The notes under the pieces were generated by a model that worked only from the letters and a program-made list of their open reading frames with translations, had not been told where the DNA came from and searched no databases. From Anaerolineae bacterium (GTDB taxonomy: Bacteria > Chloroflexota > Anaerolineae > Aggregatilineales > J027), in assembly GCA_034437655.1 (NCBI GenBank), contig DAOTTU010000001.1:1017-65016 (forward strand): a DNA stretch of 64,000 nucleotides. Reading direction: 5' to 3'. The position numbers were made by a program, and so were the translations under genes. This document shows, piece after piece, positions 7,074 through 29,409 of this stretch (position 1 is the stretch's first letter; each line of letters begins with the position of its first letter).

Positions 7074-7114
7074 GTCTAAAGACTACCTTTCACAAACAGT
7101 TTCAGTGTAGACAG

Positions 7115-8139: not shown

Positions 8140-9288
8140 CTATCCGAGAATGTCTTCGGTCTCGGCTTCTGCTTCTTCCATATCGTCTGCCGATGCGTCC
8201 GCATCCATGTCAGCATCTGCATCCATGGCGTCGTCGTTCATCTCAGTTTCGGCAGCCGGGGCGTCGGCGTCTTCCATAGGTGCTGCATTGTCCTCAAGGT
8301 TGAAGCCCGGCAAGTTGGGACCAGCTTCATAGTCAGAGCGAAGTGCTTCTGGCATGATGTCCGCGTTGCGTACGGCCCCACCCGGAATCGGCGCACCGTT
8401 GTGGCACATATTACACGAGGGTTGCTGCCCCCCGAGGATGTCTGCGTAGTTGTTCCAGATATACTGCGTCATTTGCAGCATATTGATGGTGTAGTTCTTG
8501 GCCGGAACGCCTTGATAGTCTGGGAAGTAGCGGGAATTGTGGCAGTGCGTGCAGCCAACACCCAGGCTGGTGTTCATGTGATACATCACGGCCTGGTTGT
8601 ATTGCACTGCATCCAGCGAAATGTCGTTCCGTGCATTGACGTTAAGGATGCCCTGTTCGTCGACGCTATAGACAACTTCGGGGTCCAGCGCGAGCCGCAG
8701 GTCTTCGTTTTCTGGCCAGGTTTGGGGAACCGCTTGCCCATAGTGGCAGGTTGCACAGCTAATTTGTGCGCCATAGGGCTGCTTGGTGTCCACCAGGTCG
8801 GGTAGTTGCGTCAGCCAGTTCTGGTTCAGGTCAGCAACCATGCGCAGATACTCGCGGGCCAGCATCTTGTTAGCCATTGCTTCTTCAGCGCCGGGGCCTT
8901 CCCAAACATCAGCCGCAAAGTTGTCTAACGAGTGACAATAGGTACAGTTGACGCCCATTGCCGCCGTCATGTGGTTGAGCATATAGCCGATGACGCCGGT
9001 TGTACTCAAGCCTTCCAGCACGATGACGTTCTGCGGTTCTGGAAATTCGCCCGCATACTGCCCCATCGCAAGGTATGAATCACCACTGACATATTGGTCA
9101 GCGTTGTTATAGTAGTCCACGTAGATGGCGGAAAGCGCTTCATCTACCTCGATATCAGCCTGTTCTTCATCAGCTTCGACCGTCGTATTGTAGACAAAGG
9201 TGATGACTCCGAACGTTATCAGAACCAGAGCACCTGTCACCAGGACGAAGACGATAAGAAAGGCGATGTAGTTTCTTGATTGATCCAT
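8140..9288 (-). CDS. pufC: Reaction-centre tetrahaem cytochrome c subunit
   Basis: Four CxxCH motifs (CTYCH, CATCH, CTHCH, CNMCH). N-terminal TM anchor (IAFLIVFVLVTGALVLITFGVITFV). GGAGGA RBS. Lies directly downstream of pufLM. Highly acidic C-terminal tail. Confidence 0.85.
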   Translation of the reverse strand: MDQSRNYIAFLIVFVLVTGALVLITFGVITFVYNTTVEADEEQADIEVDEALSAIYVDYYNNADQYVSGDSYLAMGQYAGEFPEPQNVIVLEGLSTTGVIGYMLNHMTAAMGVNCTYCHSLDNFAADVWEGPGAEEAMANKMLAREYLRMVADLNQNWLTQLPDLVDTKQPYGAQISCATCHYGQAVPQTWPENEDLRLALDPEVVYSVDEQGILNVNARNDISLDAVQYNQAVMYHMNTSLGVGCTHCHNSRYFPDYQGVPAKNYTINMLQMTQYIWNNYADILGGQQPSCNMCHNGAPIPGGAVRNADIMPEALRSDYEAGPNLPGFNLEDNAAPMEDADAPAAETEMNDDAMDADADMDADASADDMEEAEAETEDILG

Positions 9289-9344: not shown

Positions 9345-11222
9345 CTACGGTAACGGTGCAACAAAACCAGCGTCGACAGCCCAGGCATACCAGTCATTAA
9401 TGACGGTGCCCGTTAGCAACAGGCCGATGCCACCTGTAATCCCGGTGAGTGCGGCAAACCACCATAACCAGTCATGGATCGTCTTCGAGGTCGCCTGGAA
9501 GCCCATGCACCAGCGCCAGTAGAGTTGAGCGCGGTGGGTACCGGGGCCTTCAGCCATCATCTCATCCATTTCTTTGTGAGAACCCCAGCGCGATGTGGCG
9601 ACGATGGTTGCACCATGCATTGCCAGCAGCAGCGTAGAGCCCAACAAGAAGAAAATCGACAGCATGTGGAATGGGTTGTAATAGAAGTTGCCGTATTGAA
9701 CGCTTACATTATTCGTCCACTCAAGAATAGCCCGGAAGCCATGGCCAGAAGCCTGCGCCCAGTTACCAATGAGGATTGGACGAATCAGATAAATAACTAG
9801 ATACAAGAAGATTGCAGCACCAAAGCCCCACGCCAGTTGTGGGCCCATGCCAGCCGAGTTCGCACGACGATAGACGCGCACCAACCATGCCAGCACAGCA
9901 ACATGCAGGAAGCCAGTTGCAAAGATCCATGCACCACCTTCACGCCACGGGGCCAGCTCCAGCCCATATTCGTACCCGGGTGGGTCGAGGGTCAGGTTCC
10001 AGAACTCACGTGCGAAGAGGATCGGGTTGTAGTCCACCGTCCACAGGTAATGCTCAATAATAATGAATGAGGTCAATGCGCCAGCGGCGACTGAGACGAC
10101 ACCTGCAATACCCAGGTAAACCGGCCCAACCTGACCTTCATCAAACAAACGGCGCATCAGCGGTACTTCAATAGGCTGCTTGATCGCTGTGTTTTCCAGG
10201 CCACGACCACCGTATTCATATTCGTCAGGGTCCACTGGCTTACCAAACGCGCGGCTACGCCAGATTACGACACCGATGAGGAACAGGGATGCGGCTGATG
10301 TTGTCTGCCAGAAGGGGAAGTCGTCCCAGAAGTTCCAGAAGCCAACCCAGTCGTCCACGAGGGTACCGGACAGGAAAATACACAGGTTCGAGAACAGCAC
10401 GGAAAGTACACCAACCCAAAATGCAAGGCGGTGAATGCCGATTTCGCCAATACTGTAGCCCAACAAGTTACGCCAGAAGCCGTCTTCGTTGCCTTCTCTC
10501 ATATACGGGCGGTTACGCACACTCAGGATCACTGAGCCGTGCATTGCCAGAATCAAGGTAGAGGCAAACAGCAGCGTAATGCCAATGGCGTGGAACGGAT
10601 TATAGAAGAAATTGTAATATTGGTAGCCAATGTTGGATACCCAGTCGAGGTGGTGCGTAATGCCGAGCGCAAACCCATTGCCCCATGCCCCCATTGCAAC
10701 TGGGCGCAAGAATTGCAGCGTAATCCATGAGGACAATACTGCACCAAAGGCAATCGGTACTTCATAGCTCATGTCGAGCTTACGAGCAATGTCAACTTGC
10801 CGTATCAGCCAACCGACAAAAGCCAGCGTGGCAAAAAACACCGTGAGTTGCCAGAAAAAACCTGGTTCGTTGGGGCCAACTAGGCTAAGCCCAGCGCTAA
10901 TCGGTGGCGGGTCAAGCCGTGCCTGTAGAATGTTGTACTTTCCTTCAATAATCCATGCCTGATACATGTAAAAGATTACGCCAAAGAAAGTACCTAACAG
11001 AGACAAGACACCGAAGGTTCCCAGATAGAAACGACCAATCCAAAAGTCGAAAGGGTCTGCCCCAAAGAGCGCGTGCATCAGGGTTCCGCCAGGTTTTTTA
11101 TAATACTGCTCCATCTCCAGCATGGAGAGGTTTCTGCCTTCTTTTACTTTCTCAAGGACAAGTCGGTGACGCTTTTCTTCCATCGGCTCGTCAGGAATTG
11201 CCCCTGTTAAAATCTTGGCCAT
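9345..11222 (-). CDS. pufLM: Fused reaction-centre L and M subunits (type II RC)
   Basis: A single 625-aa ORF. The L-like half contains THHLDWVSNIGYQYYNFFYNPFH...AMHGS. The M-like half contains AILEWTNNVSVQYGNFYYNPFH...AMHGATI. A fused pufLM gene is known from Roseiflexus. Confidence 0.9.
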   Translation of the reverse strand: MAKILTGAIPDEPMEEKRHRLVLEKVKEGRNLSMLEMEQYYKKPGGTLMHALFGADPFDFWIGRFYLGTFGVLSLLGTFFGVIFYMYQAWIIEGKYNILQARLDPPPISAGLSLVGPNEPGFFWQLTVFFATLAFVGWLIRQVDIARKLDMSYEVPIAFGAVLSSWITLQFLRPVAMGAWGNGFALGITHHLDWVSNIGYQYYNFFYNPFHAIGITLLFASTLILAMHGSVILSVRNRPYMREGNEDGFWRNLLGYSIGEIGIHRLAFWVGVLSVLFSNLCIFLSGTLVDDWVGFWNFWDDFPFWQTTSAASLFLIGVVIWRSRAFGKPVDPDEYEYGGRGLENTAIKQPIEVPLMRRLFDEGQVGPVYLGIAGVVSVAAGALTSFIIIEHYLWTVDYNPILFAREFWNLTLDPPGYEYGLELAPWREGGAWIFATGFLHVAVLAWLVRVYRRANSAGMGPQLAWGFGAAIFLYLVIYLIRPILIGNWAQASGHGFRAILEWTNNVSVQYGNFYYNPFHMLSIFFLLGSTLLLAMHGATIVATSRWGSHKEMDEMMAEGPGTHRAQLYWRWCMGFQATSKTIHDWLWWFAALTGITGGIGLLLTGTVINDWYAWAVDAGFVAPLP

Positions 11223-11339: not shown

Positions 11340-11504
11340 TTACAGCCAGTTATAGGTTTCGCTGCTCAAGAGGATGAAGTGAATGGTGAGTGCAACCCCG
11401 ATACCCAGCAGGATATAGAGGATCATAACCGTCGTAAATTCAATTGGACGATTCTTCTTGCTCGGAACAATATACTTTTCTTCAATATTCGGTTGGTCGG
11501 CCAT
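11340..11504 (-). CDS. pufA: Light-harvesting complex alpha polypeptide (54 aa; not in the supplied ORF track)
   Basis: Hand translation: MADQPNIEEKYIVPSKKNRPIEFTTVMILYILLGIGVALTIHFILLSSETYNWL. It has one TM helix with the BChl-ligand His in the context ALTIHFILLSS..YNWL, as in the Chloroflexus B806-866 alpha chain. The ATG lies 4 nt after the pufB stop. Confidence 0.8.
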   Translation of the reverse strand: MADQPNIEEKYIVPSKKNRPIEFTTVMILYILLGIGVALTIHFILLSSETYNWL

Positions 11505-11507
11505 CTT

Positions 11508-11726
11508 TTATGCGTCTCCTAACCAGGGTTCCCAAATGTAAACGAGCGTATGTGCGACAATAGCGATGACCATAAAGCCGTAGGTAGCTTTAACGACGAT
11601 GTCGTGCATCAGCCATTCTTCATTGTTGAACAGACCCCTCCAACGATCTGGGACCAGGTCGTTGTCAGCTTGTACCATTTCTTGATACTCTTCTGTCCGG
11701 ATGATTACGTCTCTGCTTTCTGACAT
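11508..11726 (-). CDS. pufB: Light-harvesting complex beta polypeptide
   Basis: The [47 protein letters not shown] segment closely resembles Chloroflexus/Roseiflexus LH beta. GGAGG lies upstream of the ATG at 11726. An internal ATG at 11678 is an alternative start. Confidence 0.85.
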
Positions 11727-11772: not shown

Positions 11773-11802
11773 CTAAAAGGGTGGGGTTGCGGGTCTCCCC
11801 AC
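11773..11802 (-). terminator. Putative intrinsic terminator between the ACIII operon and pufBA
   Basis: On the minus-strand RNA: GTGGGG-AGACCCGCAA-CCCCAC followed by CCUUUUAGG. This is a 6-bp GC-rich stem with a 10-nt loop and a short U-tract. Confidence 0.45.
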
Positions 11803-11845
11803 AACCAGCGCTATCCCTGAGGTTACAAAAGTTAAACCAGCGCTA
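11803..11845. repeat. 11-nt direct repeat aaccagcgcta x2, 32 bp apart, upstream of pufB
   Basis: Exact copies at 11803-11813 and 11835-11845. Each contains the palindrome AGCGCT. Confidence 0.6.
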
Positions 11846-11891: not shown

Positions 11892-12155
11892 TCATCTCTT
11901 GTTACGGATACTTTTGACAATCTTGTCAACCGCTGGTGCAAAACCGCCTTTGCGCAAACCACTCAAGAAACTGAGCGTATTGGCTGCGGCGTCTTCAAAT
12001 TTGAGTGACACACCATTGAACTGGCAGTCTACGAAAGATGGCAATTCGCCACCGGCATAGACAAGCGCTGAATTTTCGAAGGTGCAGCCCTTGAACTCTA
12101 TGCCGTCTACCGTGACTGCCTTGTTGCTGAAAGTCTGTTTTTCAACCGTGTTCAT
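11892..12155 (-). CDS. Hypothetical 87-aa soluble protein, paralogous to the N-terminal domain of the upstream 220-aa protein
   Basis: Collinear similarity by eye: FSNKAVTVDGIEFKGCTFENSALVYAGGELPSFVDCQFNGVSLKFEDAA..LSFLSGLRKGGF versus FTNTAVEVDGNRFEACVFTNCRLLYRGGELPNFVRCEFEGVNIQLEDGA..LDYLTALYKGGF. Its start overlaps the upstream stop as ATGA. Confidence 0.65.
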   Translation of the reverse strand: MNTVEKQTFSNKAVTVDGIEFKGCTFENSALVYAGGELPSFVDCQFNGVSLKFEDAAANTLSFLSGLRKGGFAPAVDKIVKSIRNKR

Positions 12156-12814
12156 TCCGGGTCTTCTCCTTCAGCTTCGGCAGGTACTGCTTCTAGTGAA
12201 TCGTCGGCGGCGATAATTGACATCGCGTCTTCGATTGTGATACTTCCGATACCATTTGCTTCATCGATCCATTCATAGCTTGCCAGGTTCGCACGTTGTC
12301 CGGCGTCCAGGTCGTCATAAATGACAGCCAGGTCATCTGGTAAAGCTGGCATAAGATCGAGCGGAATTTCTTGTCGAAGTGGGCGGCCTTCTGCGAGAAT
12401 TTCTTCGTCAGGGTAAATAATAAAGCCATACCACAAGCCCGCAATCAGCCCTACAGTCAGCACAATCAGCGTCAAATTGAGTACTGCAAGCTGGCCATAG
12501 TTAGTGCCTGTTGCTTCGGCATTGACGTTGCGGTCATACGCTGGCATTGGTTTCTCGCCGCGTTCAACAACAGTCAATGTCTCTTCAACTTGTTTGGTAA
12601 ACCCACCCTTATAGAGTGCCGTCAGGTAGTCGAGGGTCCGGTAGGCACCGTCCTCAAGCTGGATATTCACGCCTTCAAATTCACACCGCACAAAGTTGGG
12701 CAACTCACCACCCCGATAGAGCAGGCGGCAGTTCGTGAAGACACATGCTTCAAAGCGGTTGCCATCAACTTCAACGGCGGTGTTAGTGAAGGACTGGTTC
12801 TGAAATGTTGCCAT
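12152..12814 (-). CDS. Hypothetical single-pass membrane protein encoded at the 3' end of the ACIII operon
   Basis: 220 aa. It has an ~85-aa N-terminal domain shared with the 87-aa protein and one TM helix (LAVLNLTLIVLTVGLIAGLWYGFIIY). An acidic C-terminal domain follows. A GGGAGG RBS lies in the 13-nt gap after the actE stop. Confidence 0.7.
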   Translation of the reverse strand: MATFQNQSFTNTAVEVDGNRFEACVFTNCRLLYRGGELPNFVRCEFEGVNIQLEDGAYRTLDYLTALYKGGFTKQVEETLTVVERGEKPMPAYDRNVNAEATGTNYGQLAVLNLTLIVLTVGLIAGLWYGFIIYPDEEILAEGRPLRQEIPLDLMPALPDDLAVIYDDLDAGQRANLASYEWIDEANGIGSITIEDAMSIIAADDSLEAVPAEAEGEDPE

Positions 12815-12827
12815 CGTATATGCCTCC

Positions 12828-13571
12828 CTATTCGCCTTCGTTGCCCATCATGTCGCCGTCCATTGCCTCGCCACCGTCGGCAGCATCAGCATCCGGCGCA
12901 CCGAAATTGGTCATTTCGGCCGTATCGGCGTCAGTCATGGTTTCACCAGCGGTCACAGCAGACATAAAGCTGCTCTGGACATCGCTCGGTAGGGCTTCGA
13001 TTTCGGCGTATTCGGCCAGTTGCAAAGCACGGATGTAGGCGATCACGGCCCAACGTTCTTCTGGGTCAAGGGTATACGCCTGGTTGTACATTGCCCCGCG
13101 CCCCTGCGTGATAATCAGGTAGAAAACACCAACCGGCGCATTCCGCGAGGATTCGGTGTGCAACGAGGGTGCAACCAACCCTTCCTGGGCAAGAACACCC
13201 TGGCCATAGCCAGCTTCACCATGACACGCTGCGCAAACGCCGTTGTAAAGGCGCTGGCCTTCGTGCAAGACATCTTCTGTGATTTCGATGGGGAAGGTTG
13301 TGGCAAAGGTGCCATCAACGCGCCCTTCGTACAGATGGGTGTCTTCACGTAAGAAGCCAACCGGGACAGCATTTGGGTCCAGCTCGGGGGCACCAACTTC
13401 AAAGTTCGTACTTGGGCCGAAAGGATCTCTGATCTTGGGTTGATCTTTCATGTTGCCAATTTCAGTACAGCCCGTCACCATCAGCAATACGGCTAACATG
13501 ACCAGAACCCAGAACTTCGGCGTTGCCGGAGAGCTACGGGTCACAAACTGTGGAAAGTATTTCTTGTTCAA
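12828..13571 (-). CDS. actE: Alternative Complex III monohaem cytochrome c lipoprotein subunit
   Basis: A single CAACH haem motif and a lipobox-like LLMVTGC after a hydrophobic signal. The TTG start overlaps the actD stop (TTGA). Acidic, Met-rich C-terminal tail. Confidence 0.75.
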   Translation of the reverse strand: MNKKYFPQFVTRSSPATPKFWVLVMLAVLLMVTGCTEIGNMKDQPKIRDPFGPSTNFEVGAPELDPNAVPVGFLREDTHLYEGRVDGTFATTFPIEITEDVLHEGQRLYNGVCAACHGEAGYGQGVLAQEGLVAPSLHTESSRNAPVGVFYLIITQGRGAMYNQAYTLDPEERWAVIAYIRALQLAEYAEIEALPSDVQSSFMSAVTAGETMTDADTAEMTNFGAPDADAADGGEAMDGDMMGNEGE

Positions 13572-14113
13572 CTTTGAACCTCACTCACATTAATCGGTTC
13601 TAGACCCTCCAGGAACGCTTTCGTCGATTGCGGGTCAAATTGCCGATCGGTCGCTTCAATGACGAGGAAAAAGTGGCTGTGTGAGGCCGTGTCGATGTTC
13701 TCGGCATTAAAGATTGGGTGATAGGGTAGCGGCAGGCCGTTTTGGGCGAACATAAACCCGACAGCAACCAACCCGGCGGTCAAAATTCCAAGTTCAAAAA
13801 TCACAGGGATAAACGCAGGGATACTCAATTCAGGGCGGCCACCGACGTTTAGTGCATACACTTCGGTCGAGGTCCATGCCTGGATGATGTAGCCTACGAA
13901 GAATCCAAAGAAGATCGCCGCTGGAACCAGATACGGCAGGAAATTGATACGGTCTTCTAGCACGTCGGCCAGACCTTCGACATGGAAGGGCGTATGTGCC
14001 CGTAGTTTTTGGTAGCCAGCCGCACGTGCTTCAACGGCGGCGTCCATCAAACTTTCCGGATTGTCAAATTCAGCGGTCAAGCCATAGAGTGTGCCATTAC
14101 CATTAGTGCTCAT
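13568..14113 (-). CDS. actD: Alternative Complex III membrane subunit ActD (DUF3341-like)
   Basis: The N-terminus LYGLTAEFDNPESLMDAAVEARAAGY is followed by two TM helices. I prefer the ATG at 14113 (MSTNGNG...), which overlaps the actC end by 11 nt. The track ORF extends to 14155. Confidence 0.75.
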   Translation of the reverse strand: MSTNGNGTLYGLTAEFDNPESLMDAAVEARAAGYQKLRAHTPFHVEGLADVLEDRINFLPYLVPAAIFFGFFVGYIIQAWTSTEVYALNVGGRPELSIPAFIPVIFELGILTAGLVAVGFMFAQNGLPLPYHPIFNAENIDTASHSHFFLVIEATDRQFDPQSTKAFLEGLEPINVSEVQS

Positions 14114-15503
14114 GTCCGTGGGCCTCCTCGGTAGCTTGTGCTTGTGTCTCAGCAATCGGGATCACTGGCACAAAGCGAATGAACAGGAACAGCGGTGTCA
14201 GGAATAGACCAAACGGTGAAATCAGTGTCAGCCAATCCCAGATCCCGAAGGTGAACGGATCCCACATGGTTTCCATGAAGGGGTACGCCAAGCTAACCGG
14301 GACGATCACGAAGCGTTCAAGCCACATGCCCACCAAGACAAAGACCGACACCACCACAATCGTGAGATGATTGGTGCGGAAGCGCCGGAACCAGAATAGC
14401 TGGATCACCGCCGCATTGAAGATAATCATGCCCCAGAAGGCCGGTGCATACGTCCCCAGTGCGCGTTCAACGGTCAGCGCCCACTCATTAACATCGCCAC
14501 TGAACCAGGCGCCGAAGGTTTCAACGAAGTAACCATAGGTCACCAGCAAACCCGTGATGAGCATGAGAATGCCCGCCTTGTTCAAGTGGTCTTCAGTGAT
14601 GAGATTGTGCATCTTAAAGCCTGCACGCAGGATGACCGCGAAGATCATCACCATCGCCATACCAGAGAACACTGCACCTGCGACAAAGAAGGGGGGGAAG
14701 ATCGTATGGTGCCAGCCCGGAAGCTGCGAAATCGCAAAGTCTAGACCGACGATACTGTGAACGGAAACAACCAGCGGGGTTGCCAGCACTGCCAGGAAGA
14801 AAGCCGTCTTGTGCAGACCTTCCCAGTGTTGGGCATCGCCACGCCAGCCCATCGCCGGAATTGCAAACGCCAGCCGTACCCACCTGGACCGCGCACGGTC
14901 CCGCATCGTCGCGAGGTCGGGTACAAGGTCAATGTACCAGAACAGCGCCGAGATGATGCCGTAAGTGCTAATGGCGAACATGTCCCATACGAGCGGGCTG
15001 CGCCACTGTGGGAACAGATACAGCGTGTTGGGATATGGCAAAATGTAGTAGGCAAATTCGATACGCCCGAGGTGGATCAGCGGGAACAAGCCCGCCACTG
15101 CCAGCGCAAAGAGCGTCATTGCTTCAGCAAAACGGCTAAAGGCAACACGCCAGCTTTGCCGCATCAAAAGCAAGAATGCGGAAATGAACGTCCCCGCGTG
15201 ACCGATACCGATCCAGAAGATCAGGTTAACAATTGCCATACCCCAGACAACGGGAATATCAATATTCCAGAGCCCGGTGCCACGAATCGTGACCGATGCA
15301 ATTGTGAAAAAGAAAACCAGCATCAAAATTGAGGAAATCCCGAAGCCAATGAACCACCACAGCGGTGTGCGGCCAAAGATATTCCGTGCAATTTTGTCAG
15401 CAATACTGCCGGGTTCTTCCCAGGTCGGCGGGTCTGGCACGGGGATAATCGCCCGTCGTGTCCGGTTGCTACCTTGCTGTGGTACTGTGTCAAGTGTTGT
15501 CAT
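14103..15503 (-). CDS. actC: Alternative Complex III quinol-interacting membrane subunit (NrfD/PsrC family)
   Basis: 466-aa polytopic membrane protein positioned after the Fe-S/molybdopterin-like subunit, the typical actABC order. Confidence 0.8.
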   Translation of the reverse strand: MTTLDTVPQQGSNRTRRAIIPVPDPPTWEEPGSIADKIARNIFGRTPLWWFIGFGISSILMLVFFFTIASVTIRGTGLWNIDIPVVWGMAIVNLIFWIGIGHAGTFISAFLLLMRQSWRVAFSRFAEAMTLFALAVAGLFPLIHLGRIEFAYYILPYPNTLYLFPQWRSPLVWDMFAISTYGIISALFWYIDLVPDLATMRDRARSRWVRLAFAIPAMGWRGDAQHWEGLHKTAFFLAVLATPLVVSVHSIVGLDFAISQLPGWHHTIFPPFFVAGAVFSGMAMVMIFAVILRAGFKMHNLITEDHLNKAGILMLITGLLVTYGYFVETFGAWFSGDVNEWALTVERALGTYAPAFWGMIIFNAAVIQLFWFRRFRTNHLTIVVVSVFVLVGMWLERFVIVPVSLAYPFMETMWDPFTFGIWDWLTLISPFGLFLTPLFLFIRFVPVIPIAETQAQATEEAHGHEH

Positions 15504-15512
15504 CGCAGTCCC

Positions 15513-18500
15513 CTATTCTCCTTCGCCCTGACCGTGCAGCGCCTCGTTCGGGTTCGACAGGCGTGCCAGGTAGGTCGTACGCGGGCGGGTGCCCAGTTCA
15601 CCAAGCAGCTCGTAGTTGAGTGGTTCTGCACGATGCTGGTTTACCTGAGAGTTTTCGGTATTCAAGTCCCCGAAGGAAATGACCTGTGTCGGGCAAGCCA
15701 CAGCACACGCTGGCTGAATTTCGCCATCAAACACGCGGCGATCTTCGTTCTTAGCGTGGATGCGGGCTGCACTGATGCGTTGAATGCAGTAGGTGCATTT
15801 TTCCATCACACCTTCAGACCGTACGGTGACGTCTGGGTTGCGTTGTTCCTCAAGGATGGTTTCGTCGTCGTCAATCCATTTCAGGAAGTTGAAACGGCGT
15901 ACGTTGTAGGGGCAGTTTGCAGAACAATACCGCGTGCCGATACAACGGTTGTATACCATTGTGTTGAGGCCTTCGGAGTCGTGGACAGTTGCTTCGACCG
16001 GGCAAACGATTTCGCAGGGTGCAGTTTCGCAGTGCATACACGGCACCGGCAAGAACGCCACGTGGGTTTCATCACCTTCAGTCAGGAAGTGACGGTCAAC
16101 ACGAAGCCAGTGCATTTCACGAGCTTTGAGAACCTGTTCCTTACCGACAGTAGGGATTGTGTTTTCTGATTGGCAAGCAATGATACAAGCGTTGCAGCCC
16201 ATGCAGGCTGTCAGATCAAGCGTCATTGCCCAGGCATAGCCTTCTTCGTATTCACGCAAGTCAAACGCAGTCGCCATCGGGACGCTGGTTTCGCCTTCAT
16301 GCGCAAAATTGGGGTTCTGGCGATACTCATTAAGCGTGCCGGTCCGCACGAGCGGTTCCAGGTACCCTTCAAGGTCGTCCAGATCAATTTCGCCACGAAT
16401 GGCTGCCAGTTTATAGCTTTCGTCCAGCGCGTTCAGCGATGCGCCAGCGGCTGTCCACATAGCGGCTGTGGTGCGAATGTCATAGGCGTTGAAGTTACGG
16501 TCATCGTCCACATCAGCGCCACCGCTAGTGCCATACCCTAAGAAGATAGAGACGGTGTTGTCCGCGTGCCCGGGCACTACCCAGACGGGGACTTCCATCG
16601 TGTTGTCGTTAAGTTGAACTTCAACGAGGTCTTCAAAACTGACATCTAGCCGTTCAGCAGTTGCCGGGCTGAGCAATGCCGCTGTGTCCCATGACAATTG
16701 GGTGATGGGTTTGGGCAGTTCTTGCAGCCAGCTATTGTGTGAGAAGCGACCGTCATAGATGTTCGGGTCAGTGCGGAAGACCAGTTCCAGATCATTGGAG
16801 CTAGCAGTAGGTTCGTTGTTCACCTGCGCACCGAAGTCAGCGCGAAGGGCAACCTCTAGTGCTGCATAGGCGCTGTCTGGTGCAAGACCGTCGTGCAAGG
16901 TCCGTCGCCAGTAGGCTTCAAAATCGTCGCCTTCATACAAGTCTTCCCAGAGGGCACGAACAACATCGTAGTCAGAATCATCGTCTTCGAGCAACAAGCC
17001 AAGCATCTGGTTTGCAGAACGCACGGTGTCGTACAGCGGGCCGATTGGTGGTTGAACCACACTCAAAGACCCGTCATAGGCGCGGCCATCGCTCCACTCT
17101 TCAATGAAGTGTGTTTGCGGAATGTGCCATTCGCACTGGCGTGAGGTTTCGTCGTTATACAGTGACAAATGCACCGTGAACGGCACCTCGGCAAGCAAGT
17201 CTGCAAACGGTACGTCAGCAGGTGCGTTATAGACCGGGTTACCACCGAGGATAAAGACAGCTTCAACCTGGCGGGCCGTAATGTCATCGACCAATGCGGT
17301 GATTTGTTCAGTATAAGAAACCGGGTTTGCTTCAACAGGCGCGGTGTAGTAAACCGTATTGCCAACGTTCCCCAGAGCAGCGTTAATGGCATGAACAAGC
17401 GCGTGTACGACTGGTGGTTGTTCGTCACCAGCGACAACGATGCTCGCGCCTTCGTTTTGCTCTAAGTCTTCAAGCAATGCATTGAACCAGGCTGCATCCC
17501 ATGCGTCAGAGGTCACACGGCCACTGACATCAACACCCAGTTCGGACGCAATGGCCCGGGCGAGTGCTTCAACGTCACTGGGGCTGAGTGCCAGACGGTG
17601 GTCTGCCATTGTCCCGGTTACTGAGGGCGTGCTTTCAGCCACATACAGGCGGTTCATTTCGGCCGTATCGGGGTCAGCACCAAGCACCTTACGCCGTGCA
17701 GCGAAATCACGCGCATAGCGCAGGCTACCGGGCATTGCGTACATAAAATTCGCGTCTAATGAGACGACGACATTGGCCTGATCAAAGCGATAGACAGTAT
17801 TGACGACCTGGTCAAACGCAAGCTGTGCGCCAGCGATAACGTTATCGCGTGTCACAGGCTCGTACTGATACCACCGCGCACCGGGGTACGCTTCCAGGAC
17901 AGCGTTCAAGCGGCTTGCGATTGTTGGGGAAGAAACGCCTTCAGTCAAAATCGCAATGCGTGAACTTTGCGCGTCAGAAAGCACACTTTCCAGGTCTTGC
18001 AAGAAGTTATCAAATGTATCTGGTTGACGATTGCGCAGTACCCGTGTTTCACGATCAGGGTTATATAGCTCAAGAATCGAGCCCTGCATGTAAGTATTGC
18101 TGCCACCGAGTGCGGCGGGGTGTTCGGGGTTACCGTCTACCCGTGTTGGACGCCCCTGGTGGGTTTCAATGGTGACGCCTGTCGCAAAACCACCGATAGT
18201 CATGGTGGAATTGAAATAAAGCGGAATGCCGGGGACCAGAACCTCTGGCGCGATCACATAAGGAATGATCTCTTCACCGGGTGGTTCGGCAGTACAGGCT
18301 GCACCGAAACCGACAATGGCAAGTGAGCCACCCATCAGCTTCATAAAGGTTCGCCGATCCATGCCATATTGTCGGCGCACGGCAGCTTCACGCGGGCGTT
18401 CGCGCTGAAGCAAGTCGTCAAATTCCTGATCTGACAGGTGTTCTACTGACAGATGCTGGTTTTCAACGCCACGGCCGACAGCATTAGGATCGTAGTGCCG

Positions 18501-18518
18501 ATTACTCTCGTTTGTCAT
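15513..18518 (-). CDS. actB: Alternative Complex III large subunit ActB (molybdopterin-oxidoreductase-like B1 fused to a 4Fe-4S ferredoxin-like B2 domain)
   Basis: Tat-type signal (DRRTFMKLMGGSLAIVGFGAA). C-terminal Cys clusters CMGCNACIIAC, CMHCETAPCEIVCP, CIGTRYCSANCP and CTYC...CAVACP. I prefer the ATG at 18518, preceded by AAAGGA. The track ORF begins at a TTG at 18545. Confidence 0.85.
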   Translation of the reverse strand: MTNESNRHYDPNAVGRGVENQHLSVEHLSDQEFDDLLQRERPREAAVRRQYGMDRRTFMKLMGGSLAIVGFGAACTAEPPGEEIIPYVIAPEVLVPGIPLYFNSTMTIGGFATGVTIETHQGRPTRVDGNPEHPAALGGSNTYMQGSILELYNPDRETRVLRNRQPDTFDNFLQDLESVLSDAQSSRIAILTEGVSSPTIASRLNAVLEAYPGARWYQYEPVTRDNVIAGAQLAFDQVVNTVYRFDQANVVVSLDANFMYAMPGSLRYARDFAARRKVLGADPDTAEMNRLYVAESTPSVTGTMADHRLALSPSDVEALARAIASELGVDVSGRVTSDAWDAAWFNALLEDLEQNEGASIVVAGDEQPPVVHALVHAINAALGNVGNTVYYTAPVEANPVSYTEQITALVDDITARQVEAVFILGGNPVYNAPADVPFADLLAEVPFTVHLSLYNDETSRQCEWHIPQTHFIEEWSDGRAYDGSLSVVQPPIGPLYDTVRSANQMLGLLLEDDDSDYDVVRALWEDLYEGDDFEAYWRRTLHDGLAPDSAYAALEVALRADFGAQVNNEPTASSNDLELVFRTDPNIYDGRFSHNSWLQELPKPITQLSWDTAALLSPATAERLDVSFEDLVEVQLNDNTMEVPVWVVPGHADNTVSIFLGYGTSGGADVDDDRNFNAYDIRTTAAMWTAAGASLNALDESYKLAAIRGEIDLDDLEGYLEPLVRTGTLNEYRQNPNFAHEGETSVPMATAFDLREYEEGYAWAMTLDLTACMGCNACIIACQSENTIPTVGKEQVLKAREMHWLRVDRHFLTEGDETHVAFLPVPCMHCETAPCEIVCPVEATVHDSEGLNTMVYNRCIGTRYCSANCPYNVRRFNFLKWIDDDETILEEQRNPDVTVRSEGVMEKCTYCIQRISAARIHAKNEDRRVFDGEIQPACAVACPTQVISFGDLNTENSQVNQHRAEPLNYELLGELGTRPRTTYLARLSNPNEALHGQGEGE

Positions 18519-18532
18519 AACTTGATCCTTTT

Positions 18533-19222
18533 CTAACGGTGACAAATCCAGCAGCCATCAAGACGATCAACGTTAATGTTCTGTTCTTCGACGAGTTGCA
18601 AGCCAAATTCTTCCTGGTTTGCGGGCGGTTCGTAATCGAAGTTGTAAACCTCCGACACGGGACGAATAAACTGCTCCGGTGCCCAGTGGCAGTCCAAGCA
18701 CCACGACATGGTCATATTTTCTGCCTGCCACACCAACGGCATTTCGTTCACCGGGCCATGACAAGTTTCGCAAGCGAAGCCCACATTTACATGTGCGCTA
18801 TGGTTGAAATACACGTGGCCTGCAAGGTCATGCACTCGGTTCCATTCCAACCGTTCGCCCGTTTCCAAGTAGCTTGTACGCACGGGTTCCAGCAGTTCGC
18901 TGTAGGTTGCAATCTGCGAATGGCAGGTCATGCAAGTGTGTGTATGTGGAATACCACCATACGGTCCTTGTTCGGCCGATTTGTGGCAATAGATACATTC
19001 GATGTTCAGAACGTCGCTATGCAACTCATGGCTAAAACGAACCGGTTGTTCGATCGCGATACCAACGGGTGCTCTGGTATATGGTGAGCGGTTTTGCACC
19101 AGTAGTAGTGCAACGCCGACCACAACCACCAGCAGCCCCCCCAGCAAACTCAGTCGAGCGATGGTGTTGGCAGAGGGATTGAATAGTTGTGACATGTCAC
19201 CCCAATCTAGCTCAGTAGACAA
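18533..19222 (-). CDS. actA: Alternative Complex III pentahaem cytochrome c subunit
   Basis: Five CxxCH motifs (CIYCH, CMTCH, CETCH, CLDCH, CWICH) and an N-terminal TM anchor. It is the first gene of the operon. Confidence 0.85.
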   Translation of the reverse strand: MSTELDWGDMSQLFNPSANTIARLSLLGGLLVVVVGVALLLVQNRSPYTRAPVGIAIEQPVRFSHELHSDVLNIECIYCHKSAEQGPYGGIPHTHTCMTCHSQIATYSELLEPVRTSYLETGERLEWNRVHDLAGHVYFNHSAHVNVGFACETCHGPVNEMPLVWQAENMTMSWCLDCHWAPEQFIRPVSEVYNFDYEPPANQEEFGLQLVEEQNINVDRLDGCWICHR

Positions 19223-19493
19223 AAATCGACTATTGGGAGTCTTTCTCCCAGCTCTCTATTGCTATGCTATTGCGTTGACGATGATGTAGTGGTGACAGTG
19301 ATGTGATGTCGGTCGTTGATGTGTGATGGTCAATAAATAACGTAGTAATTTTCACCGTCTTAGGTGTTGATTAAAATGATACGGCACGGGGCACAGACAT
19401 ACCAATGACTATTGTCACGTACACGCATGGCAGAATGTAATCTCCAACGTATTTCAAACAGCCAGAAACGCCTGAATTTTCGTACTATTACAT

Positions 19494-19644
19494 CAATACC
19501 TTCGCCAAAAATCAGCATGGTAGAAAAAATGACCATTTTGGCGGAAATTTGATACGTCATGAGCTTTTGTGAACCCAATTTTCGCGCCATTCATTACGTT
19601 TTCCAGCGAGTTCTACCCAAATTTCAAAATTGGCGAAGGTATTG
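19494..19644. repeat. 15-bp perfect inverted repeat flanking ~120 bp in the AT-rich divergent intergenic region
   Basis: caataccttcgccaa (19494-19508) is the exact reverse complement of ttggcgaaggtattg (19630-19644). A related ttggcgga lies at 19537-19544. Confidence 0.6.
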
Positions 19645-19978
19645 TTACATAAGAGGCGTGATTGCTAATTTTTTGAATGAGCGGGCTATATGTGTAACGT
19701 TAACATTTGTGACGGCCGAGAGAAATGCCCCATGCAAGCGCTCCTTTATCCATCAGGTCTGCACGCTCGCATAAGTGCTTGGTACGGTGCTGTTTTGCAG
19801 CCTTACGTCAATAGCTATAAAACCCAGAAGCGGCATCATATGTCATGTTGCAGAAATATCAACTGGCTGGCATGGTGTTGAATATGACATTTGTCATCAT
19901 CTTTTCCTTTTCAGGTCGCGGACTACAAAGCGCCCTACCCTTACACCTCACCCCAAATTGGGCAAAGACTTTTATAAT

Positions 19979-21797
<1,819 letters not shown>

Positions 21798-21836
21798 AAT
21801 CCATTTCCAAAAAACAAATACCACCCCGCTTTGCAG

Positions 21837-21861
21837 AGGAGGCCACGTGCCTCCTTATTAT
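21837..21861 (+). terminator. Putative terminator of sat-cysC
   Basis: aggaggc (21837-21843) pairs with gcctcct (21849-21855) around a 5-nt loop. The stem is followed by ttattatct. Confidence 0.45.
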
Positions 21862-22027
21862 CTGTCACCGGTTTATCCCAAATACAGCTCCCCCAAAGAT
21901 ATGCGGTATAGATACAATAGGAAATTGATGCCAACTCGCGATCAGTGCATATTCATGCTATTATGAGGCTGTAGGTTTATTGCGAACTGCTTCGCCATTT
22001 GTAGGTCATTTAACGAGATGAAACGCC

Positions 22028-23182
22028 GTGAAACTTGATATTGCCAGTTTAGAAGCCAATCCCCTCGTAAAATGGAGTATCATTACCCTATCTGTTGCCT
22101 TTGGTGCCGGGCTGTTTGTGTGGTTCTTCACCCAGCTAGACACAGAAGGTAACAACCTCGGCATTGACCTTATCTTCTATGCCTTTCGCGGATGGGATAT
22201 TCATTACCACGTAGTCAATGGGCTACGCAACCCACCCTGGAGTGTGTTGGTACTGATCCCGTTCGGCGCATTACTTCCCGACACCGCATCCTGGGGGTTA
22301 CTGGCATACGCGACCCTCATTGGCTTAATTCTTAGTGTGCCCGGCAATCAACCAAAGTGGAAATTTAACCTCTCCATCATCCTGCTTGTTACTGCGTTTC
22401 CGACACTGCGCGTTATCGCTGACGCGCAACTTGAAATACTGGTGATTGGCGGTATTCTCGCCACTGTCTATGGTCTAGCACACCAGAACCCTTACGCGCT
22501 GGCATTGGGGAGCTTGTTTGCGACTACTAAACCTCAAGCCGTTTTCGTGCTGATGCCGATTGTGGGCATTTACATGTTGCTGAACTGGCCACGCAAGACC
22601 TTTTTCCAAGCGGTTGCGCTGGTCGGTGCTGTGGTCATTCCAACGATGTTGTGGCGCGGCGAAGAGTGGCTTGCAGCAGTAGAAGGCACCTATCAACGTG
22701 GTGGCTTGATTGACATCAGCATGTCGGCGGCGCTCCACAGGATGGAATTCGTTCCGATACCGATCATCTATATCATTTTGGCAACATTCTTTCTTGCGAC
22801 GATGTGGATGGTCTGGATAAGCGACCGTAGCATTAGCCGCGAAAAAGCTGCGTTTCTCAGTGCTGCGTCGATGTTGCTTGCGCCATATACGGCCGGCAAC
22901 AGTGTTTTGATTGTGCTGGCTGTCGGGATTGTTTCTCTCTTACGGCGGCGATTGTTGATTGCTTTGCTCATATTTGCAGTCACCAACTCGTTCTACTACT
23001 TCAATCAGCCAGAGAATGCCACATGGTTTGCCTACTTCTGGACAACATATCTGCTTGCTAATTGGCTCATCCTTGCCTGGGACATTTATCAGGTCGAAGT
23101 GCGCAAAAGTCAGGAAACAGCGGTCGATTCCACTGGCCCAACGCCTGTACCAAACCATCAGCATGTACCACACAGCAGTTAA
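22028..23182 (+). CDS. Polytopic integral membrane protein, function unknown (possibly a GT-C-like glycosyltransferase)
   Basis: 384-aa ORF with a GTG start and at least 9 hydrophobic segments. I recognise no diagnostic motif. Confidence 0.5.
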   Translation: MKLDIASLEANPLVKWSIITLSVAFGAGLFVWFFTQLDTEGNNLGIDLIFYAFRGWDIHYHVVNGLRNPPWSVLVLIPFGALLPDTASWGLLAYATLIGLILSVPGNQPKWKFNLSIILLVTAFPTLRVIADAQLEILVIGGILATVYGLAHQNPYALALGSLFATTKPQAVFVLMPIVGIYMLLNWPRKTFFQAVALVGAVVIPTMLWRGEEWLAAVEGTYQRGGLIDISMSAALHRMEFVPIPIIYIILATFFLATMWMVWISDRSISREKAAFLSAASMLLAPYTAGNSVLIVLAVGIVSLLRRRLLIALLIFAVTNSFYYFNQPENATWFAYFWTTYLLANWLILAWDIYQVEVRKSQETAVDSTGPTPVPNHQHVPHSS

Positions 23183-23229
23183 TGCTCCTCGAGAATTGTA
23201 TTGGTTAACGAAACTTTAGGATCAATTTG

Positions 23230-23258
23230 TTGACGCTTTTCTTAACCCGTGCTATCCT
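23230..23258 (+). promoter_or_regulatory. Sigma-70-type promoter of the aromatic amino-acid operon
   Basis: TTGACG (23230-23235), a 17-nt spacer, then TATCCT (23253-23258). Confidence 0.5.
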
Positions 23259-23279
23259 CACTATCACTTGACCAATTGA

Positions 23280-23435
23280 ATGAGGTTTTTTGTGCGTACT
23301 CTAGCTGCTACCAAAACTGTGAAATTTGATAATTTTACACCTGCGACCACTGTCGACAGCAGCTGGCAGTTTTTTGGTTTCTTTTATTTTTACTACTTTA
23401 GCAGCCCCACCAAGCGGAGACCCCTGCGCACCTAA
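23280..23435 (+). CDS. Aromatic-rich leader peptide (51 aa; not in the supplied ORF track)
   Basis: Hand translation: MRFFVRTLAATKTVKFDNFTPATTVDSSWQFFGFFYFYYFSSPTKRRPLRT, ending at a TAA. Codons 29-40 (23364-23399) are W Q F F G F F Y F Y Y F. No obvious SD precedes the ATG. Confidence 0.7.
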   Translation: MRFFVRTLAATKTVKFDNFTPATTVDSSWQFFGFFYFYYFSSPTKRRPLRT

Positions 23436-23465
23436 ACGGTCAAGTTTAGCAGATAAGACAGCAAC

Positions 23466-23504
23466 AGCACGGCGTCTCCCATCAGGCGCGGTGCTTTTTT
23501 GTTG
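23466..23504 (+). terminator. Attenuator terminator in the aro leader
   Basis: agcac-g-gcgtc (23466-23476) pairs with ggcgc-g-gtgct (23485-23495) around the 8-nt loop tcccatca. One G.G mismatch and one G.U pair are present. TTTTTTGTTG follows. It lies 24 nt upstream of the aroH ATG. Confidence 0.65.
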
Positions 23505-23527
23505 TCTGGAACCAGAAAGAGGGCATT

Positions 23528-23977
23528 ATGGAGAATGTTACACCATCGGAAGAACAGTTGATTTGTCGGGGGATTCGCGGGGCAACCACCTGCGCGGAAA
23601 ATACCCGCGAATCAATCCTTGACGCCACCCGCGAACTGCTGATGGCCATTATTAAACTAAACGGCATCCGGCCAGAGGACGTCGGCAGTGCATTCCTCAC
23701 CACCACCACCGATTTAAATGCCGACTATCCTGCGGTTGGTGCCCGCCAAATTGGTTGGCATGACGTTCCGCTGCTTTGTGCCCACGAAATGAATGTTCCG
23801 CACGGCTTACCACGTTGCATCCGTGTGATGGTGATGTGGAATACTGCCAAACCGCAGGATGAAATTGTACATGTCTATCTGCGTGAAGCAGGTAACCTGC
23901 GCCCCGACCGCTCGCTGGAAATGCCTGAACTCATCGCTGAAATTCAAAAAGAACTACAAACTTTACCTATTGATTAA
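23528..23977 (+). CDS. aroH: Chorismate mutase, AroH class
   Basis: The motifs [22 protein letters not shown] and LRPD are collinear with B. subtilis AroH. Confidence 0.85.
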
Positions 23978-24006
23978 TTAACACCTGTCTTGAGGAGATT
24001 CTAACC

Positions 24007-25044
24007 ATGATCGTCATTATGCATTCAACCGCCAGCGCCCGTCAGATTTCCGAAGTTATCGCCCGTATCCGTGCGATGGGCTACGATGTCCATCTTTCTG
24101 AAGGTGAAGACCGCACCATCATTGGCGTTATTGGTCAGGGACGCGCCCTCGACCGTGAACAGCTCAGCACCATGGCTGGTGTCGAAGATGTCCTGCGCGT
24201 CACCCATCCCTACAAAATCGCCAGCCGCCACTACCACCCCGACAACACCGTTTTCCCGCTGGGCAATACTCAGGTTGGCAGCAACGACTTAACCATCATT
24301 GCGGGGCCGTGTTCAGTTGAAGGGCGCAGCGAATTATTAGAAGTCGCGCACATGGTCAAAGAAGCCGGTGCAACCGCGCTGCGTGGCGGGGCCTTCAAAC
24401 CACGAACCAGCCCATACAGCTTCCAGGGGCTCGGAGAAGAGGGGTTGAAATATCTTGCTGAAGCGCGTGAACAGACCGGCCTGCCCGTGGTTACTGAAGT
24501 CATGGACCCCAGCCTGGTGCCGCTTGTGACTCAATACGCCGACGTGCTGCAAATCGGAGCGCGCAACATGCAGAACTACACGTTGCTGCACGCGGCCGGC
24601 GAAAGTATGCACCCGGTACTGCTCAAACGCGGCATGAGTAGCACGCTGGACGAATTGTTGCAAGCCGCCGAATACATCCTCAGCCACGGCAACATGCGTG
24701 TGATGGTCTGTGAACGTGGCATCCGCACCTTCGGCAAAGAAACCCGCAACACCTTCGACCTCAATGCCATTGTTGCCCTCAAGCAACTCACCCACCTCCC
24801 TGTCATTGCCGACCCCAGCCACGCCACCGGAAAATGGGAATATGTTGAAGGCGTCGCGCTGGGAGCAATTGCCGCAGGTGCCGATGGCGTCATCGTAGAA
24901 GTCCATCAACAACCAGATGTCGCGCTCTCAGACGGTCGCCAATCATTGAAGCCGGCCAAATACACGGCCATGCTCGACAAAATTCGGGGGCTGGCAACGG
25001 TACTCGGGCGCAATGTCCCTGAAGCACAGCCGGTACTGACGTAA
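24007..25044 (+). CDS. 3-deoxy-7-phosphoheptulonate (DAHP) synthase, type I-beta, with an N-terminal ferredoxin/ACT-like regulatory domain
   Basis: IAGPCSVE...[19 protein letters not shown]...KRG...DPSH motifs. An ~80-aa N-terminal extension is present, as in Thermotoga-type DAHPS. Confidence 0.85.
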
Positions 25045-27244: not shown

Positions 27245-27375
27245 GGCGGGACACCCATTTTAAACACAGCGTAGATAGTTTTAGGTCGCATACCCAACAC
27301 AGGTGAACTGATCTACAATCATCCTTGCAACACGCGATCACTTTTGATCATCAACAGAAAAAGGGATTCATAATC

Positions 27376-28254: not shown

Positions 28255-28287
28255 TATGCTGCAAACGCATAGCTCGCATGTTAACGG

Positions 28288-28317
28288 ATGACACAAATGG
28301 ATTGCACGCGGTATAAT
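28288..28317 (+). promoter_or_regulatory. Internal promoter upstream of the GNAT-aroE-aroC-aroKB-aroQ block
   Basis: ATGACA (28288-28293), an 18-nt spacer, then TATAAT (28312-28317). Confidence 0.5.
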
Positions 28318-28360
28318 TAAACTTATTCTTCAATTTATTAACATAAAAGGCGTGTAATTC

Positions 28361-29374: not shown

Positions 29375-29409
29375 TTTTGTACCCACACGGAGAGAAGTCA
29401 GCAACACCT

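Follow-up and report, generated by a model that had tools for sequence, protein, structure and literature searches.

The 64-kb stretch of DNA analysed here (the window) carries five tightly packed act genes on its minus strand (positions 12828–19222), followed on the same strand by a gene for a 220-aa protein, a small gene that we call orf87 and a run of puf and bch genes (Table 1). The sequence-only reading had recognised actA to actE as a tightly coupled set encoding subunits of alternative complex III (ACIII), with five CxxCH motifs in ActA, one CxxCH and a lipobox in ActE, a Tat signal and Fe-S clusters in ActB, and an NrfD-like ActC; each of these assignments is confirmed. Public gene calls are slightly shorter than the maximal open reading frames for actA, actB and actD, and for the pigment genes we took precomputed Pfam hits on a public contig identical to the window.

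Table 1 Features of the act–puf–bch locus, in window positions (negative positions lie beyond window position 1)
Feature	Position	Strand	Basis
spacer upstream of actA, 790 bp	19223–20012		A+T-richer, GC 0.48; likely act promoter region
actA, pentahaem cytochrome c, N-terminal membrane anchor	18533–19222 (public call: start 19195, 220 aa)	-	5 CxxCH; cytochrome c3/c7 Pfam; QrcA-like NCBIfam
actB, Tat-exported, molybdopterin-like and Fe-S domains	15513–18545 (public call: start 18518, 1001 aa)	-	Fer4_7, Fer4_11, QrcC-like, QrcB-like
actC, NrfD-like membrane subunit, predicted quinol-binding, 466 aa	14103–15503	-	PF03916, E = 2.6e-24
actD	13568–14155 (public call: 13568–14113, 181 aa)	-	PF11821 ActD, E = 2.1e-49, full profile covered
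actE, monohaem lipoprotein cytochrome c, acidic C-terminal tail	12828–13571	-	1 CxxCH; Cytochrome_CBB3, Cytochrom_C
actG homologue, extra N-terminal domain, 220 aa	12152–12814	-	profile match to 8k9e_G; directly after actE
orf87, free paralogue of the ActG-like N-terminal domain, 87 aa, no signal peptide	11892–12155	-	46–47% identical to residues 1–84 of the 220-aa protein
stem-loop, 9-bp G+C-rich stem, then CCACCCUUUU	11785–11806	-	in the 165-nt orf87–pufB spacer
pufB	11508–11726	-	LHC Pfam, NCBIfam pufB
pufA	11340–11504	-	LHC Pfam, NCBIfam pufA
fused pufLM	9345–11222	-	Photo_RC; NCBIfam bifunctional L/M, E = 7e-253
pufC	8140–9288	-	CytoC_RC
bchG	7115–8029	-	Pfam
bchP	5871–7073	-	Pfam
DUF3623 gene	4997–5866	-	Pfam
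alpha/beta hydrolase	4143–4997	-	Pfam
bchF	3592–4071	-	Pfam
bchC	2611–3582	-	Pfam
bchX	1408–2586	-	Pfam
DUF169 gene	663–1394	-	DUF169 hit
191-aa HHH protein	74–649	-	HHH_5 hit
actF, called 403 aa (Ga0153773_1000061)	-8963 to -10174	opposite to act operon	matches ActF chains only

The act operon and its junction with puf

The hydrophobic N-terminal stretch of ActA, read off the sequence, and its five haem motifs fit a membrane-anchored pentahaem ActA. In ActB, the twin-arginine leader RRTFMK scores above threshold (TIGR04519, 23.2 bits; cut-off 20.6), Fer4_7 and Fer4_11 are dicluster domains, and NCBIfam models recognise a QrcC-like region (E = 7e-57) and a QrcB-like region (E = 5.5e-22); these domain and leader matches point to the Tat-exported fusion of a molybdopterin-like B1 and a four-cluster Fe-S B2 part that is expected of ACIII. 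ActC can be aligned over its full length with four solved ActC chains, 8k9e_C, 6lod_C, 6f0k_C and 6btm_C (E = 1e-136 to 3e-98), and among solved structures it matches ActC chains only (best 8k9e, E = 1.3e-136; 6lod_C, E = 1.6e-131). This full-length alignment and the PF03916 match predict an NrfD/PsrC-like protein with 10 transmembrane (TM) helices and a quinol site, as in ACIII. Being collinear with solved chains of 471–486 aa, the gene encodes a plain ActC and not an ActC–ActF fusion. ActD, a subunit found only in ACIII, is recognised by its own Pfam model. ActE has the lipobox-like sequence MVTGC, read directly in the sequence. The window genes therefore account for ActA, ActB, ActC, ActD and ActE of ACIII, and a menaquinol:periplasmic-acceptor oxidoreductase activity is predicted for the encoded complex.

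The operon had been said to end about 170 bp before pufB. The last gene does end 165 bp upstream of pufB, but the earlier coordinates stopped at actE and omitted both the 220-aa gene and orf87. The spacer between orf87 and pufB folds better than 200 of 200 shuffled sequences (z = -2.7). Its stem-loop was not called by a simple terminator scan, and terminator and promoter scans gave counts at shuffle expectation. The corresponding spacers of relatives contain differing hairpins, some followed by U-runs, with no common sequence evident in five unaligned spacers. From 19222, the co-directional block of ACIII, LH1, reaction centre, reaction-centre cytochrome and late bacteriochlorophyll genes continues to the window start, as had been read from the sequence, and on beyond it into bchY, bchZ and pucC.

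The act–puf layout is repeated in at least 10 related loci, all compared sequences being metagenome assemblies. Among named relatives, the closest is a phototrophic MAG from the Anaerolineae order SBR1031/Aggregatilineales, and the window organism is a separate species from the MAG TC_152 (ActD 66% and ActG-like protein 53% identical). The phototrophs CP2_42A, TC_152 and TC_71 of this order (Ward et al. 2018, 2020) have fused pufLM, ACIII and bchXYZ, as here, and the act–puf layout of TC_152 is identical to that of the window; TC_152, too, has a distal actF (see below). In the available text of two reports (PMC5826079, PMC8067394), fused pufLM, ACIII and a bc complex are described for these phototrophs and ACIII is proposed to have been acquired along with the phototrophy genes; that text gives gene presence and phylogeny, and we found in it no mention of ActF, act–puf synteny or an operon. 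The conserved act–puf–bch block physically supports what had been proposed before, namely that horizontal transfer brought ACIII and the fused-pufLM reaction centre into Anaerolineae together.

actF lies outside the window on the same contig

Searches of the 64-kb window by tblastn with ActC and six ActF queries found no second NrfD- or ActF-like gene, and the six ActF queries found neither actF nor a remnant of it in the spacer upstream of actA. We rejected two hidden forms of the gene: an actF pseudogene upstream of actA, of which there is no trace in that spacer or in the matching region of the related locus L011, and a 384-aa gene (22028–23182) that has no Pfam hits and no similarity to ActF or ActC. 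The claim that actF is absent from the locus is therefore correct at the scale of the window. The public contig Ga0153773_1000061 differs from the window by 1 mismatch in 10,649 nt and 2 mismatches in 21,401 nt, indicating the same organism, and it runs on beyond window position 1. Approximately 9–10 kb further along, 28.2 kb from actA, it carries actF. A search for actF homologues had been set as the check on an ActF-less complex, and its outcome speaks against that reading.

The full length of actF is that of the public gene call, and sequence comparison covers the 320 C-terminal residues of 403, without the 5′ 83 codons. Among solved structures, this readable part matches ActF chains only (6lod_F, 5.8e-36; 8k9e_F, 1.1e-31; 6f0k_F, 2.4e-28; 6btm_F, 3.5e-12), and it is 55% identical to the ActF of TC_152. 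The contig gene outside the window thus corresponds to the second NrfD-like subunit of ACIII, the one without a quinol site. A metagenome scan for the actF 5′ end returned only one unrelated 1.6-kb contig. The ActF proteins of the window organism and of two relatives were not among the 100 matches listed in a protein homologue search; since these proteins are themselves missing from it, that list is uninformative on absence.

The same split is found on one contig in two relatives: JAADYW010000057, which is TC_152 (L005 act operon, L020 actF; ActF matches 6lod_F, E = 7.7e-59), and DAOTVD010000427 (L011 act operon, L023 actF). In five loci with the same act–puf layout (L013, L016, L018, L024 and L067), actF lies directly upstream of actA. 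Given that two split relatives retain actF on the contig and that others have it at the head of the operon, we conclude from gene order that actF has moved within the photosynthesis gene cluster and has not been lost. Three gene orders occur: two have actF first, one of them with a short actG and the other with an extended actG and orf87, and in the third actF is relocated. These orders could mark rearrangements within the clade.

Relocation of the gene leaves a second reading of the operon, in which its complex works without ActF, Qrc-like with one NrfD subunit, and the distal ActF has been recruited elsewhere together with a methyltransferase and an FAD monooxygenase. actF is indeed apart from the operon on the opposite strand, and the methyltransferase and FAD monooxygenase genes beside it have the same orientation as actF in the window organism, L020, L022 and L023. 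Because it stands in such a run, actF may be regulated differently from the other act genes. In L016, however, these two genes already adjoin an actF that heads the act operon, so that the association is older than the relocation. Qrc complexes, which are related, contain just one membrane subunit of NrfD type and, to our knowledge, lack ActD and ActE; ActA and ActB do have Qrc-like NCBIfam matches, but here ActD and ActE are present and an ActF homologue occurs in the same gene cluster and in relatives. The authors of the Roseiflexus structure argue that conservation of the ActF proton passage is poor and that a driving force is probably missing, yet the solved complexes show extensive contacts of ActD, ActB and ActC to ActF (PMC7439408), and ActD and ActC are conventional here. 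Moreover, ActF is still intact, at 44–55% identity, across three diverged lineages. We consider an ActF-free complex improbable. Nothing in these data points to an ACIII working with a single NrfD-like subunit, which removes a false lead, and a gene missing from one operon or from a 64-kb window is not by that token missing from the genome.

The operon encodes an ActG homologue with an N-terminal addition

The statement that actG, like actF, is absent from the locus does not hold. A profile of the 220-aa protein from its TM helix to the C terminus matched 8k9e_G ('ActG') with E = 1.9e-6, over the ~47 C-terminal residues only, and the equivalent gene of a respiratory ACIII cluster matches the same chain (E = 4.3e-7). 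The protein has the features of ActG: one predicted TM helix (residues ~106–139), a gene position at the 3′ end of the act run, and the conserved C-terminal tail seen in 8k9e chain G; in the 220-aa protein this tail carries the motif SYxW[IV][DN]xxxGxxx[IL]P[IV]xxAxxL. Where it differs from the ActG family is in an N-terminal addition of ~100 aa, in which residues 1–85 comprise a β-solenoid-like domain and two helices. An AF2 model (pLDDT 82–87 for residues 1–50 and 111–130) has nine 3-residue strands across residues 3–53. The best Foldseek matches to this model, the SV2 luminal domain and pentapeptide proteins, are weak, with none at E ≤ 0.001, and the only sequence matches to pentapeptide-repeat proteins, in which tandem A(D/N)LXX repeats form a right-handed quadrilateral β-helix, are likewise below threshold (Pentapeptide_3, E = 0.0035, 18 bits, cut-off 27; PDB 2w7z, E = 2.3).

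The ~90-aa proteins to whose family orf87 belongs are widespread (1085 cluster representatives at E ≤ 1e-3) and have no Pfam model; orf87 itself is kept at the same position in L005, L008, L011, L018, L024 and L067. We rejected the idea that the N-terminal domain and orf87 compensate for loss of actF, since L018, L024 and L067 have both in addition to an operon-head actF.

The 220-aa gene lies between actE and pufB in all 12 homologues, and both genes do so in every locus, a position that would suit accessory proteins of RC-LH1 heading the puf transcription unit. Filamentous anoxygenic phototrophs are not known to have an H subunit, Roseiflexus RC-LH has small extra TM proteins, and no link of orf87 to any Act protein was detected. 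On the other hand, the 220-aa protein is, in its TM/C-terminal part, a homologue of the ActG present in a solved ACIII, and the same part follows actF in L009, a non-phototrophic ACIII–cox cluster without puf. Spacing also separates the pair from puf: the 220-aa gene begins 13 bp after actE and overlaps orf87 by 4 bp, whereas the 165-nt hairpin-bearing spacer precedes pufB. It is thus very improbable that the two are RC-LH1 proteins and not ACIII subunits. We conclude that the ActG N-terminal domain and orf87 are lineage-specific and probably cytoplasmic additions. More speculatively, and with low odds in our judgement, they might form a module on the cytoplasmic face of the Aggregatilineales photosynthetic ACIII that docks or regulates the complex relative to RC-LH1; if so, this would be a new ACIII accessory part, encoded exactly at the act–puf junction.

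Composition of the complex and comparison with known systems

Although every sequence is a metagenome assembly, it is hardly credible that faulty assembly or binning produced the apparent absence or displacement of actF: three assemblies of the window organism made independently (JGI, ENA and Logan) have identical junctions, and these recur in the two split-arrangement MAGs, which stem from separate studies and show them on one contig each (31 kb and 84 kb). Since an ActG homologue belongs to the operon and the same contig carries actF, the operon is not the stripped-down, five-core-subunit variant proposed from the sequence. We conclude that a full photosynthetic ACIII (ActA–ActG) is very probably encoded, with six subunit genes in the operon and actF in trans 28 kb away.

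[quoted passage not shown] By analogy with the solved Roseiflexus, Chloroflexus and Rhodothermus complexes, menaquinol made by the PufLM reaction centre would be oxidised at a periplasmic pocket of ActC. The Fe-S clusters of ActB would take up the electrons, which would then move along the five haems of ActA to the single haem of ActE; a soluble carrier in the periplasm would accept them there and return them through PufC to the special pair. The ActC/ActF pair would provide putative proton paths. The location of the act operon directly upstream of pufBA would allow co-regulation, and the spacer stem-loop possibly sets relative transcript levels.

All seven subunit types of the Chloroflexus aurantiacus photosynthetic ACIII (actABCDEFG, Caur_0621–0627; PDB 8k9e) are shared with the window organism, and the ActG proteins share the C-terminal motif IPIDxAMDL..ERGLP. 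The window organism differs in that its actF is detached, its ActG has the N-terminal addition and is followed by a free paralogue, and its act operon abuts pufBA; the accessory subunits do differ from those of Chloroflexus, as had been suggested. In the available text of PMC9316378, the photosynthesis genes of Chloroflexus are described as scattered and not clustered, and a second, respiratory (Cr) operon, actABEG, is proposed to borrow ActCDF, a precedent for membrane subunits encoded in trans. Like the window operon, the Cr operon relies on a membrane subunit gene elsewhere in the genome, but it lacks actC, actD and actF and is itself a second copy, whereas only actF is detached here and no second act operon is known.

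The Roseiflexus castenholzii photosynthetic ACIII (ActABCDEF; PDB 6lod) is likewise accompanied by a fused pufLM reaction centre type, and its 6lod_F is the best match of the distal ActF. The purified Roseiflexus complex has six subunits and no ActG (PMC7439408), in contrast to the window operon, which encodes an ActG homologue. The extended ActG and orf87 are the sole mildly novel feature of the locus, the rest being a further example of a known ACIII type, and both would be cheap targets once ACIII is purified from these mat organisms. Splitting of act genes between loci is already known elsewhere.

Core act genes and the location of actF

The description of actA to actE given in the sequence-only reading is borne out by motif counts, domain matches and structure matches. 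The five genes are closely packed on the minus strand from 19222 to 12828. ActA carries five CxxCH motifs and cytochrome c3/c7 domains; ActB (~1000 aa) has a twin-arginine leader (RRTFMK), scores above the TIGR04519 cut-off, and pairs a molybdopterin-like part with Fe-S dicluster domains; ActD matches PF11821 (E 2e-49); and ActE has one CxxCH motif and a lipobox-like MVTGC. ActC matches NrfD and aligns end to end with ActC from each of the four solved alternative complex III (ACIII) structures (E 1.3e-136 to 2.7e-98), with no ActF chain among its structure matches. Strongly acidic low-complexity C-terminal tails, e.g. DADAADGGEAMDGDMMGNEGE and EAEGEDPE, occur on ActE (12828-13000) and the ActG-like protein (12152-12200), and ActB is also Asp/Glu-rich; these features would fit a saline mat origin.

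The reported absence of actF holds for the 64-kb window, which contains no ActF-like sequence and no remnant upstream of actA, but not for the genome. In three related loci (L013, from GCA_050331055.1, L015 and L016), a ~398-aa gene lies directly upstream of actA; the L013 product is 37% identical to ActF of L009, a respiratory, non-phototrophic ACIII-cytochrome oxidase cluster. When an alignment of ActF from related loci was used to scan GTDB representative genomes, matches fell on both contigs with the two other "actF-less" operons: JAADYW010000057 of the MAG TC_152 (match at 6835-7965, act-puf block at 18000-30884) and DAOTVD010000427 (38925-40100 and 53170-73715, respectively). TC_152 ActF matches solved ActF chains (6lod_F, E 7.7e-59).

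The window sequence recurs in a public microbial-mat contig (JGI 3300012009 Ga0153773_1000061), with one or two mismatches over 10.6 and 21.4 kb, and was independently assembled also from ENA PRJEB25599 reads. Beyond window position 1, the public contig continues on the act-puf strand with bchY, bchZ, pucC, three small genes and a hydrolase gene, followed on the opposite strand by genes for an FAD monooxygenase, a methyltransferase, a 64-aa protein and a 403-aa protein. The last gene extends past the stretch analysed; its 320 readable residues share 55% identity with TC_152 ActF (E 2e-116) and, among solved structures, match ActF chains only (6lod_F, E 5.8e-36; 8k9e_F, 1.1e-31; 6f0k_F, 2.4e-28; 6btm_F, 3.5e-12). 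Hence, an actF homologue does exist elsewhere in the genome, 28.2 kb from actA.

Features of the act-puf region, in window coordinates (negative values lie beyond window position 1)
Feature	Position	Strand	Remarks
220-aa gene (ActG-like)	12152-12814	minus	directly 3' of actE, gap 13 bp
N-domain coding stretch	12560-12814	minus	~85-aa N-terminal domain of the 220-aa protein, same family as orf87
orf87	11892-12155	minus	87 aa; 4-bp overlap with 220-aa gene
Stem-loop	11785-11806		9 bp, G+C-rich; orf87-pufB spacer
actF	-8963 to -10174	opposite to act-puf	called 403 aa; distance measured from actA start
384-aa polytopic membrane protein	22028-23182	plus	between sat/cysC-like and chorismate mutase genes; no Pfam match

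The ActG homologue and orf87

The act run does not stop at actE; the 220-aa gene and orf87 are also members. The orf87 product shares 46-47% identity with the N-terminal ~85 residues of the 220-aa protein. Past this point, the 220-aa protein consists of a hydrophobic helix and an acidic tail that bears the conserved motif SYxW[IV][DN]xxxGxxx[IL]P[IV]xxAxxL. A profile of this helix and tail matches chain G ("ActG") of Chloroflexus aurantiacus ACIII (8k9e/8k9f/8x2j/9ilt; E 1.9e-6), and the equivalent small gene 3' of actF in L009 matches the same chain (E 4.3e-7). Both matches identify the 220-aa gene, on sequence grounds, as a homologue of actG, so the operon includes one, contrary to the earlier claim.

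AlphaFold2 models the 220-aa protein with moderate confidence as nine short strands (residues 3-53) and two helices in the N-domain, a transmembrane helix at 106-139, and a tail of helix, hairpin and helix. A fold search turned up nothing stronger than weak similarity to beta-helices of the pentapeptide-repeat and SV2-luminal types, and the sequence evidence for pentapeptide repeats in the N-domain is sub-threshold. The N-domain family has no Pfam model and is large (1085 cluster representatives at E <= 1e-3), its members being mostly stand-alone proteins of ~90 aa. The domain is also matched in 25 separate stretches of a 4975-aa protein (P0149), beside Ig-like and cadherin-like domains. Since neither the extra ActG domain nor orf87 has a signal peptide, both are predicted to be cytoplasmic. 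The extended ActG and its orf87 paralogue are the sole new accessory feature of the locus, and a modest one.

Gene-order types and complex composition

Three gene orders occur in the clade. Type I (L013, L016) is actF-actABCDE-short actG-pufBA; Type II (L018, L024, L067) is actF-actABCDE-[N-domain-actG]-orf87-pufBA; and Type III is actABCDE-[N-domain-actG]-orf87-pufBA, with actF relocated beside methyltransferase and FAD genes. Type III comprises the window with L098 (the public-contig locus), L011 with L023 (DAOTVD010000427) and L005 with L020 (TC_152); L022 shows its actF side only. The existence of Type II rules out the extra ActG domain as a substitute for displaced ActF. The methyltransferase and FAD genes already adjoin actF in a Type I locus (L016), so the relocation is most simply explained by rearrangement within the photosynthesis gene cluster. 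There is precedent in the Chloroflexus actABEG operon (PMC9316378), from which, as here, membrane subunit genes are missing and encoded elsewhere. The nearest non-phototrophic cluster (L009, 4735-17293) reads actC-actA-actB-actD-actE-actF-actG, then SCO1 and coxBACD; with actC shifted to the front, it is a further case of membrane-subunit gene shuffling.

The distal ActF very probably assembles into the ACIII complex of this operon. By homology with solved photosynthetic complexes (PMC7439408), ActC would oxidize menaquinol at a periplasmic pocket, and electrons would pass from the ActB Fe-S clusters through the ActA haems and ActE haem to a soluble carrier, which would return them via PufC to the reaction centre. 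Proton passages are expected in ActC and, less certainly, in ActF. With an ActG homologue in the operon and actF on the same contig, a five-subunit variant is unsupported, and the original observation is only partly confirmed. We conclude that the locus encodes an ordinary, complete ACIII of a known phototroph lineage in a split gene arrangement. TC_152, a Turks and Caicos mat MAG classified in Chloroflexota, Anaerolineae, order SBR1031 (Aggregatilineales), was described as having a bc complex and ACIII besides fused pufLM and bchXYZ (PMC8067394). For the related CP2_42A, acquisition of ACIII along with phototrophy genes had already been proposed (Ward et al. 2018, PMC5826079); the passages retrieved from these two papers do not mention ActF, ActG or act-puf synteny.

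Layout of the act-puf-bch run

As the sequence-only reading proposed, the act and puf/bch genes are co-directional, in a single-strand run from 19222 through the window start and ~6 kb beyond. After actA to orf87 come pufB, pufA, fused pufLM, pufC, bchG, bchP, DUF3623, hydrolase, bchF, bchC, bchX, DUF169 and helix-hairpin-helix protein genes. The act-puf junction is kept in all related loci spanning it. The 165-nt orf87-pufB spacer folds better than 200 of 200 shuffles, and its stem-loop may act on transcripts by termination, attenuation or stabilisation; relatives' spacers have other hairpins, some followed by U-runs, with no common sequence evident by eye.

The 384-aa membrane protein is unrelated to either ActC or ActF. 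In L098, actF is followed by the 64-aa ORF and the UbiE-like methyltransferase and FAD-dependent monooxygenase genes (17194-20576; window-relative about -6500 to -9900). This pair, whose products might tailor pigments or quinones, also adjoins actF in L016, L020, L022 and L023, where a divergent PucC-like gene sometimes intervenes. In two further MAGs (L019, 5849-8128; L021, 5871-8144), an ActF homologue lies near distant bchX (35% identity) and bchZ (23-24%) paralogues on the opposite strand, possibly representing a second nitrogenase-like reductase set.

Between bchX and bchY, the DUF169 gene (663-1394) and the 191-aa helix-hairpin-helix gene (74-649) form an unusual insertion in bchXYZ; L020 has two small ORFs (198 and 131 aa) just past bchY. 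The adjacent DUF3623 and alpha/beta-hydrolase genes (4143-5866) share one base, 4997, and are fused into a single protein of 557-595 aa in L007 (8817-10604), L013 (17224-18897) and L014.
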